Part shown: positions 1 through 8,401 of the stretch, in pieces
Layout: the number at the start of each line of letters is the position of its first letter
Numbering within the stretch: the stretch's first letter is position 1
From: Candidatus Vampirococcus lugosii
GTDB taxonomy: Bacteria > Patescibacteriota > Gracilibacteria > Absconditabacterales > Absconditicoccaceae
Direction: 5' to 3'
DNA: 8,401 bases
NCBI RefSeq assembly: GCF_018420025.1
Contig: NZ_JAEDAM010000041.1
Location: 1-8,401, forward strand
Notes under the pieces: model-generated
What the model was told of the DNA's origin: nothing
Databases searched by the model: none
Seen by the model: only the letters and a program-made list of their open reading frames with translations
Translations under genes and position numbers: made by a program

Positions 1-2
1 CA

Positions 3-128
3 TTATTAACTGAATTAAAAAATGTAAGTAAAGTTTACTTTAAAATAGATAATATACATATAAATAAAGTAGAACAAATAAATGAGCTTCAAGAAAAATT
101 ATTTAAATTATTTAAAATAAAATTATAA
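3..128 (+). CDS. 3' end of a hypothetical protein (5'-truncated by the window edge)
   Basis: Frame +3 is open from the window edge to TAA at 126-128 (LLTELKNVSKVYFKIDNIHINKVEQINELQEKLFKLFKIKL*). A terminator-like hairpin follows immediately. No family recognised. Confidence 0.45.
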   Translation, partial: LLTELKNVSKVYFKIDNIHINKVEQINELQEKLFKLFKIKL

Positions 129-129
129 A

Positions 130-160
130 ATTTGTGTAGTACACAAATCTATTTTTATTT
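130..160 (+). terminator. Rho-independent terminator-like hairpin
   Basis: Stem atttgtgt (130-137) pairs with acacaaat (141-148) around a 3-nt loop. A T-rich tract ctatttttatttt follows, 2 nt after the TAA of the upstream CDS. Confidence 0.6.
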
Positions 161-166
161 TCTTGC

Positions 167-191
167 AAATCCTTGTCTAAATCAAGGATTT
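167..191 (+). other. Second stem-loop (tandem terminator or leader structure)
   Basis: Perfect 9-bp inverted repeat aaatccttg (167-175) / caaggattt (183-191) with a 7-nt loop tctaaat, followed by agaaatttt. Confidence 0.35.
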
Positions 192-336
192 AGAAATTTT
201 GTTCTACAAAGATGAGTTTATTATTGCAGAAGGTTAGTTTTTACTATATTTTTACTTTAATAATCTATTGAAATATTCGATAAAAAAATTATATATACAT
301 ATATTTATTTATATTGTTTTAACTAATTTATATAGT

Positions 337-894
337 ATGTCAGAGTCTCTTTGAGGATTTTCTTTGGAAGATGGAAATCTTGGAAATACAGTATCAGAAG
401 TAAGTCAAGAGGATGTGAAAGCTGTGCAAAATGATCAAAAAAAAGCAAAAAAAGTATTTTCTGATATCAAAAATCAACAAAAAAAAGATAAAATAACTGC
501 TACATTGTTATCATGTATCTTGGAAAATATAAATGATGAGTTATTTGTAAACTTTTATTTATTTTATAAAAAATCTTGAGTTTCAATAAATAGTTTATTT
601 TTTATTTTTGCTCCATTTTTATGAGATAGGTTAGATATGGAAATTTTTTTAGTTTTAAATTATGATAAACCTGATAAATTTAATAATATTTCTTCTTATA
701 TAGATTATCTTGATTGATTTATTAAAAATTTTGATTTTTCAAAGCAGGTAAAATATGAATTTGTAAATTTAATTGTATCTATTATTTATAATTATGATCT
801 TTGAAAAGCTTATACAAGTTTATCTGATTTGGATGAACCAGATGTTTACAAAAAAAAGTTAATTGATAGTATTTATAGTGAATTATTTATATAA
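337..894 (+). CDS. Hypothetical protein, 185 aa (table 25)
   Basis: ATG at 337, TAA at 892-894, with 5 in-frame TGA codons read as Gly. It contains the track ORF 364..579 in the same frame. The N-terminus is charged and low-complexity (MSESLGGFSLEDGNLGNTVSEVSQEDVKAVQNDQKKAKK...) and the C-terminal half looks helical. No family recognised. Confidence 0.65.
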
Positions 895-908
895 TTAAAA
901 TAAACTAT

Positions 909-1652
909 ATGAAAACAGTTCTTGAGATAAAAGAATTAGAAAAATCTTTTAACAACAATTTTAAAAAAGTAAAAGTTTTGAATTGAGTAAATATTGTTGT
1001 TTGAAAATGACAAGTATATTGATTTTTGTGACCAAATTGAAGTGGTAAAACTACTACATTAAAATGTATATTGTGATTTTTGAAATATGATTCATGAACA
1101 GTTTCTATATTTGAGCAAAATCCAAATCAAAATAATTCTATTTTTAAAGATATATGATATGCACCAGAAAATGCTTACTTTTATGATCATTTAAATTGAA
1201 TTGAATTTCTTATTTTTATGTGAGAATTGTCTTGATTGTCCAAACAGAAATCAGAATTAAATTGAATTAATCTTTTGGATAAATTATAACTTTCTTTTGC
1301 CAAAACTAAAATGGTAAAATCTTATTCCAAATGAATGAGACAAAGATTAGGTTTGGCAGCTAGTTTAATTAATGATCCAAAAATAGTTTTTTGGGATGAA
1401 CCTATGAGTGGTCTTGATCCATTAGGTAGGATGGTTGTAAAAGATTTAATGTATGAATTAAAAGAAAAATGAGTTACATTATTTTTTAATACTCATATTT
1501 TGTCGGATGTACAAGATATTGCAGATAAATTTGGTATAATATATAATTGAAAAATTATTTATGAAGATATGACCAAAAATTTAAAATCAAATTTGGAAAA
1601 TATATTTAAAGAAAAAATATATGAAAATGAGAAAGAACTTCAAATAACATAA
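909..1652 (+). pseudogene. ABC transporter ATP-binding protein (ABC-2/NatA-like) interrupted by an in-frame TAA at 1287-1289
   Basis: With TGA=Gly the frame shows all the expected motifs. Walker A is GPNGSGKTT (1029-1055, two of three Gly are TGA). The signature is YSKGMRQR (1323-1343, Gly is TGA). Walker B is IVFWDEP (1383-1403), followed by a D-loop SGLD and an H-loop NTHIL. The frame is continuous from ATG 909 to TAA 1650-1652 except for one TAA, in LLDKL*LSFAKTK, between the Q-loop region and the signature motif. Confidence 0.8.
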
Positions 1653-1672
1653 TTTATAATTTAGTATTACAA

Positions 1673-2344
1673 ATGATTTTACTTATAGATAAACCTCAAT
1701 GACGAACTAGCTTTGATGTTGTTAAAAAAATTAGAAATAAAGAATCTTGAAAAAAGAAAGTATGACACTCTTGAACATTAGATCCTATGGCAACTTGATT
1801 ATTAGTTTTGTGAACTGATAAAGATACCAAATTATTGGAAAGTATACAAAAATTAGATAAAGATTATATTGCAAATATTGATTTTTCTGTTTTTACAGAT
1901 ACATGGGATATGGATTATCATAATGAAATTATAAATTATGATACAAAAATTATGGACTGAAAATTTTTTTTGCAAAAAGAATGATTAAGTATTTTATCTC
2001 CTGATATATTTGATATAAAAAATAAATTAGATTTATTAATTCCAGAATATGAATTACCACTTCCTGCATTTAGTGCAAAAAAAATTAAGTGAAAAAAATC
2101 TTATGATTTAGCTAGGAAATGAAATATACTTAAAAGATCTCAAAATATGAAAATGTTTAATTATGAAATAATTGATTATAATTTCCCAAATTTGAAAATA
2201 AAATTTACTGTATGAAGTGGTTGTTATATTAGATCTATTGCTTATTGGATTTGAAAAGAATTTAATTTATGATGAACTTTATCATATCTTAGAAGAACTA
2301 GAATAGGAGATTATGATATAAAATATGCAAATACTATTTTATAA
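1673..2344 (+). CDS. truB: tRNA pseudouridine(55) synthase TruB, 223 aa
   Basis: The N-terminus is MILLIDKPQG(CGA)TSFDVVKKIR. The catalytic motif is GHSGTLDPMATGLLVLG (1764-1814, all four Gly encoded by TGA). Also present are PAFSAKKIKGKKSYDLARKG and GSGCYIRSIAYWIGKEFNLGGTLSYLRRTRIG. These are the canonical TruB motifs, in the canonical order. Confidence 0.9.
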
Positions 2345-2371
2345 ATTTATTATTTAATTTCATTTTTTGAA

Positions 2372-3769
2372 ATGAATAGTCCTGAAATTATTAATTGAAA
2401 TATAAAAACATCAAAAAATTGAACATTTGATAAAATGTTATTGCAAAATATAGAAAAAAATTTTTTTCGTCAACAAGTTCCTCATATTTCTCAAAAAAAA
2501 GAAAATTTAAAAGAATTATGACTTGATGATGAAAAAGCAAAATATTGGGAAGATAGATCATGTGGTTATATTTGTCTTTTGATGTGATTAAAATATTTTT
2601 ATGGTGAAATAAATTATGATATAGAAAATATAGATTATGATTCTACAAAATCTTATGATTTTTTTGATTTTTATAATGCAAAAGAAAAATCTTATAAGTT
2701 TTTTACTAAAGAAAATGGTTGGTTGCATTATTGATTATTACAAATGGCAAGAGAATTATGACTTTATTGATTTTATAAAAAATTTCCAAAAGAAAAGCAA
2801 AAATTTATGATTTCTTTAGTTTCTTCATTAAATGAAAATTATTTTGTAACTGCTAGTGTATGATTTAAGTGATCTATTTCTCAATATTCAAAAGATTCTC
2901 ATCTATTAGTTATTTCTGGTTATGATATTGAAAAAAATGAATTAATATTGAATGATCCTTATAATCAAAATGAATCCAAGGTTGATATAGATGAATTTTT
3001 GGAAAAATTTAATTGAACTGTGTTTATGATTGCTGAAAAACCTGATGAAGAAATGTTGGTTAGTTCTCCATTTTTGATAGAAAAAGATAATGAATGAAAA
3101 TGAAATTTTACTTCTCTCGTTGTTCATCAAGATGAGACTTCTGCATTAAATTTAGTTGAATCTTTGGATGATGTAGAAAAAATATTTTTTAGACAAAATT
3201 GAGAAAGATCTTTAAGATTTCGTGTATGAAATATATTGTTGAGAGTAGATCCTAATAGAATCTTTACAAATGAATGAGCATTAAAAACTATTTTGCAATT
3301 AAATAAACATATTATAGATTCTCAAATACAAGATGTAAATAATTATTATAAATATCTTATTGAAAATCCTGATCAAATGACTGAAGAAATTTCTGATGCA
3401 TTATCTATTGTTAAAAATATAAAAAATTATTTATTATCAAAATTAAATATAGAAAAACCTGTTGTTGCTATTCATAATAATAGATTTATGGATATTTCAA
3501 AAAATTTTAAAGAATATGAATTTTATCAAAATAATGATATTCCCAAAAATTGTTTTGTTATAGTTAATAATTTTTCTGATTTTGAAAATTTGATGAAAAA
3601 TTGAATAAGTGTAGTTTTGATGGATAAAATTGATTGAGATTGATGATTTTCTGATTTTGCAAATATTGAATGAATTAGATATTTTAATATTGAAACTTGA
3701 TTCAATAATTCTGATATTCAAAAATCATTTTATAATAAAATTTCATCAATTATAGAATTATCTTCATAA
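2372..3769 (+). CDS. Two-domain putative peptidase, 465 aa: N-terminal C39-like (papain-fold) cysteine peptidase, C-terminal M14-like zinc peptidase motif set
   Basis: The N-terminal half has VPHISQ...YWEDRSCGYICLLMGLKYFYG (Cys codon 2561-2563), HLLVISGYD (His codon 2900-2902) and LILNDPY, the Cys/His/Asp layout of Peptidase_C39-like domains. The C-terminal half has VVHQDE (3125-3136, HxxE), RVDPNRIF (3248-3259), VVAIHNN (His 3473-3475) and RYFNIETG (Glu 3692-3694). The track ORF 3293..3604 is an internal fragment in the same frame. No signal peptide is evident. Confidence 0.65.
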
Positions 3770-3801
3770 ATTAATAATTTATATATTTTTTGATATTTGT
3801 A

Positions 3802-4857
3802 ATGAAAAAAAAGTTCTTTGTATATAGTTTTTTGTTAATTTTGTTGTCTTTTTTATTTTCTTTTTATTTACTAAATAAAAACTTGATAATAAATAAACAA
3901 CTTGTAATAAATCATTGAGATTGATTTAGAAATTTAATATCTGATTTTTCTTATTTAGATAAAATTTCATTATTGGCATATAACAAAATAAATAATAAAG
4001 ATACTTCAATTTTTCCTTGAGTTTACAATTTTAGTTGATCATATACCAAAAGTGAATTTTTTGAAAAAATAAATAAATGACCAGACAAAAATTATACTTA
4101 TATTACAATAATAGAATGACGATCTATTTATGATATAGATGATTATCTTGCTAATAATTGATATATTAATTTTTGAGATTATATAAATTATGTATCTGAT
4201 AAAAAAAATATTTCAAAATATATAGAAAAATATGAGTTTTTGAAGTTTGATTTTGAAATAAATAATTTGGAATGATTTCTATATCCTGATACATATAAAA
4301 TAGATTTATGATGAGATTTTTTATGACAATTAGTTGATTTGCAATTGCAAAATTTTAATAAAAAAGTATGGGAAATGCATAAAAATGATTTTGATTGATT
4401 TAATCAAAAATTAAATAAAGATTGAAATAATTATAATTTAAGTTTTTATGATATTATTATTTTGGCATCTATTATAGAAAAAGAAGAAAATCTTAATCAA
4501 AATAAACCAGAAATAGCATGAATTTTTATAAATAGATTAAATTCATCATGTCCTTGAGCTTTCAGAATTGATGCCGATATTACATTATGTTATTGATTAA
4601 AAAAACCTTATAAATATTGTACTAGTTCGGTTATAGTTGAAAATTTATATGATTCTGATAATTTATATAATACTAGGGCAGTATCTTGACTTACACCAAG
4701 TCCTATATCAAATCCTGAATTGATTACAATTGAATCTTTATTAAATTATAATAGTACTAACAAATGTTATTATTTACATGATAATAATTGAAAAATACAT
4801 TCAAGTGTCAATATACAAGAACACAATATATTAAAAAGTAAATATTTAAATAAATAA
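3802..4857 (+). CDS. mltG: Endolytic murein transglycosylase MltG (YceG-like), 351 aa
   Basis: The N-terminus is a TM anchor, MKKKFFVYSFLLILLSFLFSFYLL. The remaining motifs are ITIIEG(CGA)SIYDI, LEGFLYPDTYKI, LASIIEKEE (4465-4485, catalytic Glu region), IAGIFINRL, FRIDADITLCYG, LYNTRAVSGLTPSPISNP and YYLHDNNGKIHSSVNIQEHN. Together these cover the full YceG/MltG motif series. Confidence 0.9.
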
Positions 4858-4873
4858 AAAACTTTTATAAAAA

Positions 4874-4901
4874 TTGCATTTTAATATATATTATATATAA
4901 T
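4874..4901 (+). promoter_or_regulatory. Sigma70-like promoter candidate upstream of the surface-protein gene pair
   Basis: TTGCAT (4874-4879), a 16-nt spacer, then a perfect TATAAT (4896-4901), about 35 nt upstream of ATG 4936. Such matches arise easily by chance in AT-rich DNA. Confidence 0.35.
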
Positions 4902-4935
4902 AGTTAGTATTTATAAACTAATTAAAATCCATACG

Positions 4936-5415
4936 ATGAAATTAGAATCTATTAAGGAGAATTTGTTAGCTTTAGTTTTAGCTTTTATTCTTGCTTTTAG
5001 TATAATGTTTGTATTTAGTACTACCGATTTACTGAAAGCTGATATATTGTGAATACAAGATAAAGAAGAGAATATAAGATGAGATGTTTATTCTAATTTA
5101 ACTTGATGACAGCTTAAAATAGTTTCAAACACTAATCTTAAATGAATATCTGCGGCATCTTTTACAGTTGTTTATGATCCTAGTGAATTAGAAATATTGG
5201 CATCTGATTTGGATTCTAAATATAATTTTAATACTAGTTTTAATGAATGAGTAGTAAATATATATATTACTGATATATGAGAGATAAAATTGGAAGATGA
5301 AATGTTTGTTATAAATTGAATTTCTTCTGATTATATAGATTCATTAAATGTATCTGATTTTATGTTTAATTTTACTGATTGAAGTTCAGATAGTCCTAAT
5401 ATTACATCTAATTAA
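4936..5415 (+). CDS. Membrane-anchored/secreted hypothetical protein, 159 aa, possible cohesin-like beta-sandwich
   Basis: ATG 4936 to TAA 5413-5415, with 9 in-frame TGA codons. The N-terminus has a hydrophobic anchor, NLLALVLAFILAFSIMFVFS. The segment ISAASFTVVYDPSELEILASD...GVVNIYITDIG weakly resembles cohesin-type domains. Confidence 0.65.
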
Positions 5416-5450
5416 AAAATTTATTTTATATTAAAAATTCAATAAACAAA

Positions 5451-7073
5451 ATGAAAATAATATTGACTTTGATTCTTTTTATTCTATCTTTTTGAATATC
5501 ATTTTGAATGATTGCTGATCTTGATGTATCTATAGAAAAAGATACAGCCGATATGAATGAAACTTTGGATATGACTATTAGAGCATTAGATGCTGATGGT
5601 AATGTAGTTGATGATCATGTTTGAAGTGTGCTTATGGTTATTGAAGGTGGTGGTTGATTTGAGTCTGTTGAGTTTCCTAGTGATTGAATTTATGATTTTA
5701 CTTTGGAAGATCAATGAGAAGTTATATTTACTAAATGATTGACTTTTTTGGAGTCTTGAGAATTTACTATTTTGGTAGAAGATTTGATGGATCCTAATAT
5801 TAGTTGAACAGCACAAATAAATATTTCTGGTTGATGAAGTGAATATCAATTTGATGTTGATATTTATTCTCCAGCTAATTGAGGAACTGAAACTAGTTCT
5901 TCAATAAATGTTATATGAGAAACAAATGCACCAAATACAATATATGAAGTTTTTATAGATTGAGAGATGGTAAAAGAAGATATAACTGATGAAAATTGAG
6001 CTATAAATACATATATACAAAATACTTATGAATGAAATGTTTCTATGATTGTTAAATTACTTGATTTAGATTGAAATGTTGTTTGAGAATCTGATGAAAT
6101 AAGTTTTGATTATTATCCAGAAGATGAAGAAGTATTTCAATCTTTGGAAATAAATCCTTGAAATGAAGTTAATCAATGAGATGATATTGAATTTATAGTT
6201 TATACTTCTGATAATGTAGAATCTGTTGATTTGAAATTGGAATGATATCAATCATATTCTATGGATAAAGATTCTAATGGTAAATTTGTAAGAAATATTA
6301 AAATTGATGATCCATGATCTTATGAAATTTGATTGGAACTTATGGCTATGTGAAATATGGAAGAATATGATAATGTTGATAATATTAATATATTGGAAAA
6401 AAAATTAATAGAAAATGTTAAATTTGTAAAAAATAAAGAAAATAATTCAATTTCTTTTGATTGGCAATATAGAGGACAAATACCAAAATTTATGTTTACA
6501 TATGCTAATTCTCAAGAAGATGTGATGTCAGAAAATTTAAGAAATGAGATTATAGTAGATGAAAATGAAACAGTTTTGGAATGAGTTGATCTTGATGACG
6601 ATTTTTATGTAATAGTTTATCCTTTGGATCAAAATGATAATGTTGATTGAGAAGAATCTGGTTTGGTTGTGATTGAATGATCTATGATGGCTTCTCCTAG
6701 TTGTCAAGTTTCTTGAATAAAATTGAGATTAGAAAAAATAAATTGAAAAAATTATATAGTTTGGGATGAAATAGATTGAGTAGATACTTATGAGATATAT
6801 ATGTCAGAAAATGAAGTTGCAAATATAAGTGAAATGAAAAAAGTTGCAGATAGAAAGGAAAATAAATATGAATATCCATTTGATCCTGATTCTGAAGAAG
6901 AGATTTATAATTGGTATTCTGTAGTTGCTAAATGTTCTGACTGAGAAAGTTTTAATATAGATGGTGTTACTAAAGTTAAAGTATGACCGGTTACTAATAT
7001 AGTTCTATTTTTATTATTTTCTGTTTTTATTTATATGTCTTATTATATAATTTCTTATTCTAGGAAAAACTAA
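5451..7073 (+). CDS. Large surface protein, 540 aa: signal peptide, tandem Ig-like/FN3-like domains, C-terminal anchor
   Basis: ATG 5451 to TAA 7071-7073 with many in-frame TGA codons; the track ORF 6357..6584 is an internal fragment. The signal peptide is MKIILTLILFILSFGISFG. An Ig-like segment reads LDMTIRALDADGNVVDDHVGSVLMVIEGGGG...FTILVEDLMDPNISGTAQINI. An FN3-like segment reads GIKLRLEKINGKNYIVWDEIDGVDTYEIYMSENE. The C-terminus is VKVGPVTN, then a hydrophobic stretch IVLFLLFSVFIYMSYYIISY, then SRKN. Confidence 0.8.
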
Positions 7074-7195
7074 TATAATAGTATTATATATGTAAATATT
7101 AATAAAGATATATATTTCTTTAAAAGAAACTATTCATAAATATAATTGAAAAAATTAGTCATTAGATGTAATATATTTGGTTTTTTATATAAAAC

Positions 7196-7249
7196 AAAAA
7201 AAGACACAGTTTTTAAGTTTATTAAAATAATGTCTTTTTTTTTGTGTTT
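7196..7249. terminator. AT-rich extended hairpin flanked by A- and T-tracts (possible bidirectional terminator)
   Basis: aaaaaaagaca (7196-7206) pairs with tgtcttttttt (7231-7241). An inner ttttaa/ttaaaa pairing (7211-7216 / 7222-7227) lies within the loop. A T-run follows on the plus strand and an A-run precedes it. The pairs are almost all A-T, so the structure is weak. Confidence 0.35.
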
Positions 7250-7386
7250 GAATTTTAAAACTTATTCTCTACGAATATAACTTATTTTTTAATATCTTAT
7301 AAATAAAATATTTGAACCTAAAAGTAAAAATGTTCTAAAAAACAAAAAATATAGAAAAAGAGTTGGAAGATGCTATAAAAGAGTAA

Positions 7387-7455
7387 TTAATTAATTTTTA
7401 AATTATCTGTTATTAATTTCTTAAAATCTTGTATTCATATTGCTATTTTTTTCAT
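7387..7455 (-). pseudogene. 22-codon remnant resembling the N-terminus of AAA-ATPase-like (PF09820-type) proteins
   Basis: The minus-strand ATG (7455-7453) to TAA (7389-7387) encodes MKKIAIGIQDFKKLITDNLKIN*. It matches my recollection of that family's conserved N-terminus (MKKLPIGIxDFxxLIxxNYxYVDKT). The conserved Gly is a TGA codon. No continuation (YVDKT etc.) appears in any downstream frame. Confidence 0.3.
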
Positions 7456-7489
7456 CTCTTTATTTTTTTAATATTACTAAATCTCTTTC

Positions 7490-7517
7490 ATTATATTTTT
7501 TTGATCTTCAAAATCAA
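7490..7517 (-). promoter_or_regulatory. Sigma70-like promoter candidate on the minus strand upstream of the 22-codon remnant
   Basis: On the minus strand: TTGATT (7517-7512), a 16-nt spacer, then a perfect TATAAT (7495-7490), about 35 nt upstream of the ATG at 7455. Confidence 0.3.
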
Positions 7518-7559
7518 CTTTTTTTTGTTATATTTCCATTTTTTGCCAAGGCAAAAATC

Positions 7560-7601
7560 AACAAAAAAACATGATAGAAGAATATATCATGTTTTTTTGT
7601 T
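7560..7601. terminator. Strong bidirectional rho-independent terminator
   Basis: Perfect 17-bp inverted repeat aacaaaaaaacatgata (7560-7576) / tatcatgtttttttgtt (7585-7601) with an 8-nt loop. The A7 and T7 tracts sit inside the arms, so the hairpin ends in a U-run on either strand. A small hairpin tttttgc-caag-gcaaaaa (about 7540-7557) lies just upstream. Confidence 0.6.
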
Positions 7602-7619
7602 AACTAAATCAAAATAAGT

Positions 7620-7647
7620 AAAGAGTCAAAGAGAACAAAGAGTCAAA
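7620..7647. repeat. 11-bp direct repeat, two copies
   Basis: aaagagtcaaa occurs at 7620-7630 and again at 7637-7647, separated by gagaac. The minus-strand reading is tttgactcttt twice. Confidence 0.6.
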
Positions 7648-7650
7648 TAT

Positions 7651-7690
7651 ACGATGAATGATTTTAAAAACAAAACAGATCATTCATCGT
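7651..7690 (-). terminator. Stem-loop immediately after the stop codon of the FISUMP-domain gene
   Basis: Perfect 12-bp inverted repeat acgatgaatgat (7651-7662) / atcattcatcgt (7679-7690) with a 16-nt loop. The right arm abuts and overlaps the minus-strand TAA (7692-7690). The downstream tract on the minus strand (atatttgactcttt) is only moderately T-rich. Confidence 0.45.
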
Positions 7691-8401
7691 TATAGTTCTA
7701 AGGCACAGACTACACTAAACCCGAGAACCTTACTATAGGTAGAGCGGTTCACAGTAACGAAACTCGAAAGCAGGTGGCGGGACCAAACAGTACTACCAGA
7801 CTCAGTACTAGACCACCAGTAACTGTAGATACCTAAACTGTAGAAACTACCAAACGTAATGCGGTAGCCTGGTAATGAAGATATAAGTCATCACATCTTA
7901 CTATTAGGACCACTTGCATTCCATCCTAAACCATCACATCTCCAGTTGATATTTTCAGAATCAGTACATCACAAGCCGATTTCTAAGGCTTGCCACTGTG
8001 CATCAGAAGGAAGAGACCATCAAGCTCATAATTCTTCACATACAGTCATAGCAGCATCCCAATCATATAGTCTACCGTATGTATTACAATTGGAAATATC
8101 ATCATCATAACACCATGAATTTCCTGCACTTGGAGTGTGTTTCATATTGGTACTAGTCCAACAGTTTCAGTCTGGCATTGATTTAGTTGTATAACTCTCA
8201 CTTCAATCATTAGTAGAAACTACATCTCAACAAGTCCATGTACTTCCTCAGCCTCCATCACTTGCTCAAGTAGATCATTGTTGTTCTACATATTCATTTA
8301 CTCAACTAAATACTTCATCCAAACTATCACCTGATAAACTTGTTCCATCTTGTTTTTTTACAATCTCACTATTATCTCATAATACAATAAATGAAGATCA
8401 A
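7690..8401 (-). CDS. Fibrobacter succinogenes major paralogous (FISUMP, TIGR02145-like) domain protein, 5'-truncated by the window edge
   Basis: The minus-strand frame is open from 8400 to TAA at 7692-7690 (236 codons, 14 of them TGA). The C-terminal region reads NSWCYDDDISNCNTYGRLYDWDAAMTVCEELGAGWSLPSDAQWQALE...LPGYRITFGSFYSLGIYSYWWSSTESGSTVWSRHLLSSFVTVNRSTYSKVLGFSVVCALEL*. This matches the FISUMP hallmarks YGxLYNW, GWxxPSxxEW, GYRxxxGxF, YWSST and GFSVRC. Confidence 0.8.

Follow-up and report, generated by a model that had tools for sequence, protein, structure and literature searches.

The locus and its reading frames

Candidatus Vampirococcus lugosii is an epibiotic predator within the Absconditabacteria (SR1), a lineage of the Candidate Phyla Radiation. 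The stretch of its DNA considered here, the window, is contig NZ_JAEDAM010000041.1 of assembly GCF_018420025.1 (positions 1 to 8401, forward strand), and the question asked of it is which amino acid is encoded by UGA (TGA in the DNA), a codon that an earlier note, made from the sequence alone, had taken to be glycine, as in translation table 25. The window is 8401 base pairs (bp) long and has a G+C content (GC) of 22.8 %. When TAA and TAG are the only stops, it carries seven genes on the plus strand, one on the minus strand and one partial gene, which are as follows (lengths in amino acids, aa, or codons).

3–128, plus strand: 3′ end of a putative upstream gene, 41 codons without TGA, open from the window start to a TAA at 126–128
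337–894, plus strand: g1, hypothetical protein of 185 aa, 5 TGA and 3 GGN codons, TAA stop; table-25 translation exactly WP_213349287.1
909–1652, plus strand: ABC transporter ATP-binding protein (Pfam ABC_tran), 247 codons, 16 TGA and 5 GGN, with an in-frame TAA
1673–2344, plus strand: truB, tRNA pseudouridine-55 synthase (Pfam TruB_N) of 223 aa, 14 TGA and 2 GGN; exactly MBS8122105.1
2372–3769, plus strand: g4, C39-like peptidase N-terminal domain (Pfam Peptidase_C39_2, 30.8 bits) and uncharacterised C-terminal half, 465 aa, 21 TGA and 4 GGN
3802–4857, plus strand: mltG/YceG, endolytic murein transglycosylase (Pfam YceG; Protein Data Bank (PDB) entries 4iiw, 8yq7 and 2r1f) of 351 aa, 19 TGA and 0 GGN
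4936–5415, plus strand: g6, 159 aa, a hydrophobic segment at the N-terminus, 9 TGA and 0 GGN; exactly MBS8122109.1
5451–7073, plus strand: g7, probable surface protein of 540 aa (location inferred from sequence), hydrophobic segments at the N- and the C-terminus, 32 TGA and 10 GGN
7690–8400, minus strand: C-terminal 236 aa of a FISUMP-domain protein (Pfam Fib_succ_major) that continues past the contig end, 14 TGA, 16 GGN and 11 TGG, GC 38 %

Under table 25, the translations of seven window products are exactly equal to deposited V. lugosii proteins, the series MBS8122102–09 included. Among them, g4 is MBS8122106.1, deposited as a ‘C39 family peptidase’; the MltG translation matches ‘YceG family protein [Ca. 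V. lugosii]’ (P0121) at 100 %. Besides these seven, the FISUMP fragment matches ‘FISUMP domain-containing protein, partial [Ca. V. lugosii]’ (P0253) at 100 %. The truB product also matches TruB entries in the PDB (best E=3e-27). In Pfam, g1 had no match, g7 had no significant family and g6 had a weak Cohesin match of 20.2 bits, under the cut-off. NCBI assigns V. lugosii to the phylum Ca. Absconditibacteriota, and these exact protein matches bear out the placement of the source in Absconditabacteria/SR1 or Gracilibacteria that had been proposed from the letters alone.

Read with the standard code (table 11), the whole window holds no listed open reading frame (ORF) longer than 103 aa and no stop-to-stop run longer than 108 codons, which is the nearly non-coding appearance that had been described; an exact look-up of the longest table-11 fragment found no entry. 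With TAA and TAG as the only stops, the plus strand contains stop-free frames of 553, 474, 359, 244, 218 and 176 codons, and the minus strand a frame of 236 codons that continues past the 3′ end of the window. As a control for chance, the window was subjected to 500 Markov-1 randomisations, in which the longest run free of TAA and TAG was 119 ± 21 codons on average, with a maximum of 215; runs of at least 150 codons summed to 2416 codons in the real DNA, as compared with 15 on average and at most 380 in the randomisations. Treating TAG or TAA as sense instead gave no comparable set of frames on one strand of the window. Coding density under TAA/TAG-only stops is 87.7 % (gene models from the first ATG), as opposed to the fragments of at most 108 codons that table 11 leaves. 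The fragmented ORF track is a consequence of applying table 11 to DNA in which UGA is glycine. The gene set that the earlier note had read from the window, seven long plus-strand genes and one on the minus strand, thus stands; the contiguity that it had ascribed to them does not extend to every gene, since the ABC gene is split by a TAA at 1287–1289. Its warning that any standard-code annotation would be badly fragmented holds in general, but not for the public annotation of V. lugosii, which already uses table 25.

In-frame codons in the window total 130 TGA and 40 GGN, and TGA makes up 116 of the 140 glycine codons (83 %) in the seven complete plus-strand genes; recounted from its ATG, truB has the 14 TGA among 16 glycine codons that had been counted by hand. 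TAA is the stop of all nine genes (the eight genes and the partial gene at 3–128), likewise as first noted, and TAG was found neither in frame nor as a stop anywhere in the window genes. The predicted proteins contain 6.9 % glycine and 0.8 % tryptophan under code 25, versus 1.6 % glycine and 6.1 % tryptophan under code 4; only the former is a normal composition.

Assignment of UGA to glycine

The placement of TGA within conserved motifs is the simplest evidence on its meaning, and every motif cited at the outset was found as described. In the ABC gene, the Walker A motif GPNGSGKT begins TGA-CCA-AAT-TGA-AGT-GGT, such that two of its three glycines are TGA; in truB, all four glycines of GHSGTLDPMATGLLVLG are TGA; the LEGF and SGLTP motifs of MltG have one TGA each; and in the FISUMP motif GAGWSLPSD both glycines are TGA, the second being followed by TGG for tryptophan. 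Pfam profiles, which are built overwhelmingly from standard-code organisms, provide a measure of the fit. With glycine rather than tryptophan at TGA, scores were 88.8 versus 45.7 bits for ABC_tran, 105 versus 71.8 bits for TruB_N, 163.4 versus 122.9 bits for YceG and 47.7 versus 24.1 bits for Fib_succ_major. In a Codetta-style scan, each of the 20 amino acids was set in turn at all 49 TGA codons in the genes for ABC, TruB and MltG, and the Pfam bits were summed. Glycine scored 346.6 bits, followed by alanine (281.7), serine (281.3) and asparagine (276.8); cysteine scored 258.0, and tryptophan (229.5) and phenylalanine (226.9) were near the bottom; glycine therefore lies about 65 bits above its runner-up.

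Codon interchange among relatives leads to the same assignment. The window truB was aligned with 16 orthologs that had been retrieved from species-representative genomes by a DNA pattern with TGA at three of the TruB-motif glycines, and the three motif columns fixed by that pattern were left out. Across the 11 remaining columns that have TGA in the window, 63 ortholog codons are TGA, 40 are GGN and none is TGG.

UGA is glycine in this DNA; glycine outscored the 19 other amino acids on the Pfam profiles, and the assignment is held with near-certainty. The earlier interpretation is supported, and the observation on which it was built is confirmed. The assignment is also already known, for the clade since 2013 and for this genome since 2021. 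The V. lugosii genome paper (Moreira et al., 2021) reports UGA as glycine, with genes called by Prodigal under table 25, and passages of PMC8629427 and PMC8080830 trace the assignment in SR1/Gracilibacteria to Campbell et al. 2013 and Rinke et al. 2013. Hence, the value of the result is practical rather than a matter of new biology: a recoded genome could be recognised from its letters alone, table-11 ORF tracks are to be disregarded for windows of this kind, and the points made below on mistranslated relatives, the split ABC gene and CGA are useful by-products.

Lineage and decoding machinery

All 16 genomes retrieved by the truB pattern are metagenome-assembled genomes (MAGs) of Absconditabacterales, Gracilibacteria or Patescibacteria, some of them labelled Peribacteria or only ‘bacterium’, and the nearest relatives of the window genes are SR1/Absconditabacterales MAGs. 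Four genomes with TGA at the TruB catalytic glycines (L003, L004, L005 and L011, of which L011 is closest to the window) bear the label ‘uncultured Candidatus Peribacteria bacterium’. These labels probably represent imprecise taxonomy for Absconditabacterales-like MAGs and not a new recoded lineage.

Going by the literature on the lineage, UGA would be read by a tRNA-Gly with anticodon UCA, release factor 2 would have been lost and release factor 1 would terminate translation at UAA and UAG. The gTranslate preprint names loss of prfB, the gene for release factor 2, as a lineage hallmark. A UCA-anticodon tRNA does occur in an oral Gracilibacteria MAG (L009), at 474–552 on the minus strand, where it adjoins a tRNA-Lys just downstream of truB. 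Its acceptor stem has G1:C72, C2:G71 and G3:C70, its discriminator is U73, and it fits the general tRNA model and not that of tRNA-Sec. Because these positions match the glycine-identity criteria of PMC8629427 (Shulgina and Eddy), namely G1:C72, C2:G71, G3:C70 and U73, the tRNA is taken to have glycine identity, although ARAGORN called it SeC despite that identity set in the acceptor stem and discriminator. A tRNA-Lys is found at the same place in three further relatives (L002, L014 and L015), in which no tRNA(UCA) was detected.

The share of glycine codons that are TGA was compared with base composition, and amounts to 76 % in the window (22.8 % GC), 70 % in relative L031 (27.5 % GC) and 25 % in relative L030 (32.5 % GC). 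The share tracks A+T richness and fits mutation pressure for TGA over GGN; the strong A+T pressure suggested by a GC of 22.8 % would favour TGA in this way.

Some considerations weigh against the glycine assignment or bear on its reach. Scans of the window for tRNA genes and Rfam elements found none, a release-factor gene is likewise absent from it, and the evidence for a tRNA(UCA) comes from a distant relative, L009, whose TruB is about 40 % identical. Furthermore, the Pfam test reports the best average fit, with which a low level of ambiguous UGA decoding would still be compatible. Finally, the status of TAG as a stop in the window organism is assumed; within the set of truB orthologs, TAG ends the gene of one relative.

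A possible reassignment of CGA to tryptophan

The codons of the arginine box are unevenly used in the window: there are 29 AGA, 5 AGG, 2 CGT, 3 CGC, 2 CGA and no CGG. For Absconditabacteria, Codetta predicts that CGA and CGG encode tryptophan (PMC8629427; Shulgina and Eddy 2021), and the two CGA codons of the window were examined in this light.

1703–1705, plus strand: CGA, truB codon 11, probably Trp and not Arg, judged by ortholog codons
4120–4122, plus strand: CGA, mltG codon 107 (IIEG-CGA-SIYDID), probably Trp, judged by the homolog column and relatives’ DNA

An extended code for V. lugosii, in which UGA is glycine and CGA (together with CGG) is tryptophan, would refine the glycine assignment without contradicting it, and is considered on balance probable. 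Apart from the published prediction for the clade and the scarcity of CGA and CGG beside AGA, it draws on the fact that both window CGA codons are kept as CGA in the nearest relatives. At truB codon 11, the closest ortholog (L011) also has CGA, and the other orthologs have isoleucine, leucine, valine, tyrosine or phenylalanine, with no arginine codon among them. At four other truB columns (77, 82, 198 and 220), the closer relatives alternate between CGA and TGG. At mltG codon 107, the column of 120 lineage homologs contains W 62 times, R 56 times, and Y and G once each, and in L030 and L031, the two relatives whose DNA could be read, the ‘R’ is in fact CGA, AGA being their main arginine codon. 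The other tryptophan of the window MltG, encoded by TGG, pairs with CGA in L030, and in nine cleanly translated MltG homologs arginine is the chief residue to share columns with tryptophan. Solved MltG structures have tyrosine, methionine or threonine at the position of codon 107. When seven CGA sites in conserved proteins of relatives were read as tryptophan, the net gain was about 7.8 Pfam bits.

Against this extension stands, first of all, the number of codons, as the window offers just two CGA. The Pfam preference at the mltG site is only 1.5 bits (160.2 for W and 158.7 for R), a difference small enough to be nearly uninformative, and the truB codon falls beyond the bounds of the Pfam domain. 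One CGA site among the relatives prefers arginine by 2.6 bits. In addition, Vampirococcus branches near the genomes analysed with Codetta and may lie outside them.

If the extended code is true, table 25 mistranslates truB codon 11 and mltG codon 107 as arginine, the public table-25 proteome of V. lugosii shows arginine wherever the cell inserts tryptophan, and the reassignment predicted by Codetta for Absconditabacteria extends to the Vampirococcus lineage, for which a search of the available literature found no report of CGA or CGG as tryptophan. Table 25 is probably incomplete for V. lugosii, and the public proteins probably still carry arginine-for-tryptophan errors at CGA.

The interrupted ABC transporter gene

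Frames 879–1289 and 1290–1652 constitute a single reading frame that is split by one codon, and the NCBI annotation accordingly lists MBS8122102.1 (126 aa) and, as a separate protein, MBS8122104.1 (113 aa).

1287–1289, plus strand: in-frame TAA at ABC codon 127, ancestral codon TGA (Gly), judged by the homolog column, the DNA of a relative and a second assembly

Of 120 homologs, mostly about 247 aa long and none of them interrupted at codon 127, 82 have G in this column, 34 have W (from TGA translated wrongly with code 4), three have D and one has H. The relative L017 has TGA at the matching position. The ABC protein is 68 % identical to an ABC ATPase of Ca. Absconditicoccus praedator, and a metagenome scan with it returned only a relative at 61 %. 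Two independent Logan assemblies, of sequencing runs from the genome project, disagree at this codon. SRR13241708_791 (L032) matches the window at 100 % identity and carries the TAA at 1287–1289, whereas SRR13241709_467 (L033), which covers window positions 192–7116 at 99.93 % identity, has TGA and an intact ABC gene of 247 aa. The two differ by four substitutions (1288, 6450, 6588 and 7080), all of them G↔A transitions, plus one homopolymer indel. According to the V. lugosii genome paper, the DNA was obtained from consortia of about 10 cells by multiple displacement amplification (MDA) as well as by MALBAC (amplification cycles based on multiple annealing and looping).

Since one amplified dataset has the TAA and another lacks it, it is best read as a G-to-A change of a glycine TGA codon, either a minor variant or an artefact of amplification or consensus, with no bearing on the code itself. 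That it is instead a genuine, fixed inactivation of the transporter, leaving a pseudogene or a split gene, is unlikely. Such an inactivation would agree with the occurrence of TAA in both the deposited contig and the Logan assembly of SRR13241708, as well as with the two separate proteins of the NCBI annotation. It has to contend with the intact allele from SRR13241709, with the absence of a frameshift and the persistence of about 60–68 % identity to intact homologs in both halves, and with the nature of the four inter-assembly substitutions in DNA that was MDA/MALBAC-amplified from about 10 cells; as the leading explanation, it was dropped once the intact allele had been found. For the artefact or minor-variant explanation, the consequence is that a deposited ABC transporter gene has been split by a probable amplification error, and the case illustrates a hazard peculiar to codes with UGA as glycine, in which the glycine codon TGA is one transition away from a stop.

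Comparison with other genetic codes

The window resembles table 25, the SR1/Gracilibacteria code, in having UGA as glycine and UAA as a stop within a very A+T-rich genome of an Absconditabacteria member. For UGA there is no difference between the two, although the dominance of TGA in the window (76 % of glycine codons) is unusual, and its two CGA codons may differ from the arginine of the table. The clade for which Codetta predicts CGA and CGG as tryptophan is similar to the window in that CGA is rare, AGA is the main arginine codon, and CGA occurs where relatives have TGG or aromatic/hydrophobic residues; it differs in that the window has two CGA, no CGG and no tRNA(UCG) gene to offer.

Table 4, known from Mycoplasma/Spiroplasma and several insect endosymbionts, shares with the window the change of UGA from stop to sense, a reduced A+T-rich genome and fragmentation under table 11. 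Its assignment of UGA to tryptophan would suit the sense use of UGA, the very A+T-rich genome and the TAA stops seen here, and most public relatives have been deposited with W at UGA positions. Nevertheless, UGA as tryptophan is extremely improbable and was rejected on profile scores, codon interchange and composition. Tryptophan lies 117 bits below glycine, among the worst of the 20 residues; TGA is exchanged for TGG in none of the ortholog comparisons, versus 40 exchanges for GGN; the proteins would consist of 6.1 % tryptophan and only 1.6 % glycine; and glycines of the catalytic and Walker A motifs would disappear. In the window, UGA is glycine and not the tryptophan of table 4. As noted in the gTranslate preprint, many annotation pipelines separate only table 11 from table 4, a likely reason for the W that most public relatives show at UGA sites. 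In only 9 of the 120 homologs of MltG and 32 of the 120 of ABC are the glycine columns free of W, and most public proteins of these relatives are thus mistranslated, with tryptophan at glycine codons. Some of the public MltG and ABC homologs contain at least 20 W and hardly any G.

Ordinary standard-code DNA, largely non-coding or pseudogenised, or bypassed at UGA by selenocysteine insertion or site-specific read-through, would account for the lack of any table-11 ORF above 108 codons, yet its probability is negligible in view of seven TAA/TAG-free ORFs of 176–553 codons (random mean 119, maximum 215), full-length translations that match conserved families and are conserved and syntenic in relatives, 130 in-frame TGA codons (far too many for selenocysteine), a score for cysteine 88 bits below that of glycine, and the lack of a selenocysteine insertion sequence (SECIS) or any other Rfam element in the window; ORF lengths, conservation, TGA number and the cysteine score together led to its rejection.

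Gene order, the FISUMP gene and the convergent spacer

Gene order around the window genes is retained in relatives. The pair truB–g4 is conserved in L011 (3501–5640) at 69–73 % amino acid identity, g4 being 69 % identical, and the order mltG–g6–g7 is conserved in L031 (3324–6574) at 42–55 %. In L031, a syntenic gene of 159 aa after mltG is the counterpart of g6, and a syntenic gene of 538 aa is 50 % identical to g7. To judge from their hydrophobic termini, g6 and g7, neither of which has a confident family, may be cell-surface proteins of the epibiotic predator.

The FISUMP gene is set apart by its composition, with a GC of 38 % and a GC at third codon positions (GC3) of 0.25, as opposed to 19–26 % and 0.08–0.13, respectively, in the other genes. 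In this gene, GGN is about as frequent as TGA. Horizontal transfer of the 38 %-GC gene was considered and set aside, given its 14 in-frame TGA codons and several paralogs in the same genome. The first 45 residues of the protein, at the contig edge, share 83–96 % identity with stretches of other V. lugosii proteins deposited as ‘partial’, of which one (P0264) has a prepilin-like N-terminus. From its sequence, the 45-residue edge segment has the look of a repeated module at which the assembly broke, ending the contig here.

Between the convergent g7 and FISUMP genes lies a spacer of 616 bp (7074–7689) with 18–20 % GC. It contains the following hairpin.

7557–7604, minus strand: terminator-like hairpin, a 20-pair stem followed by a T-run; one found versus 0.0 expected from shuffles

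The spacer gave no Rfam match. Further inverted repeats are present in it near 7200–7250 and 7653–7690.

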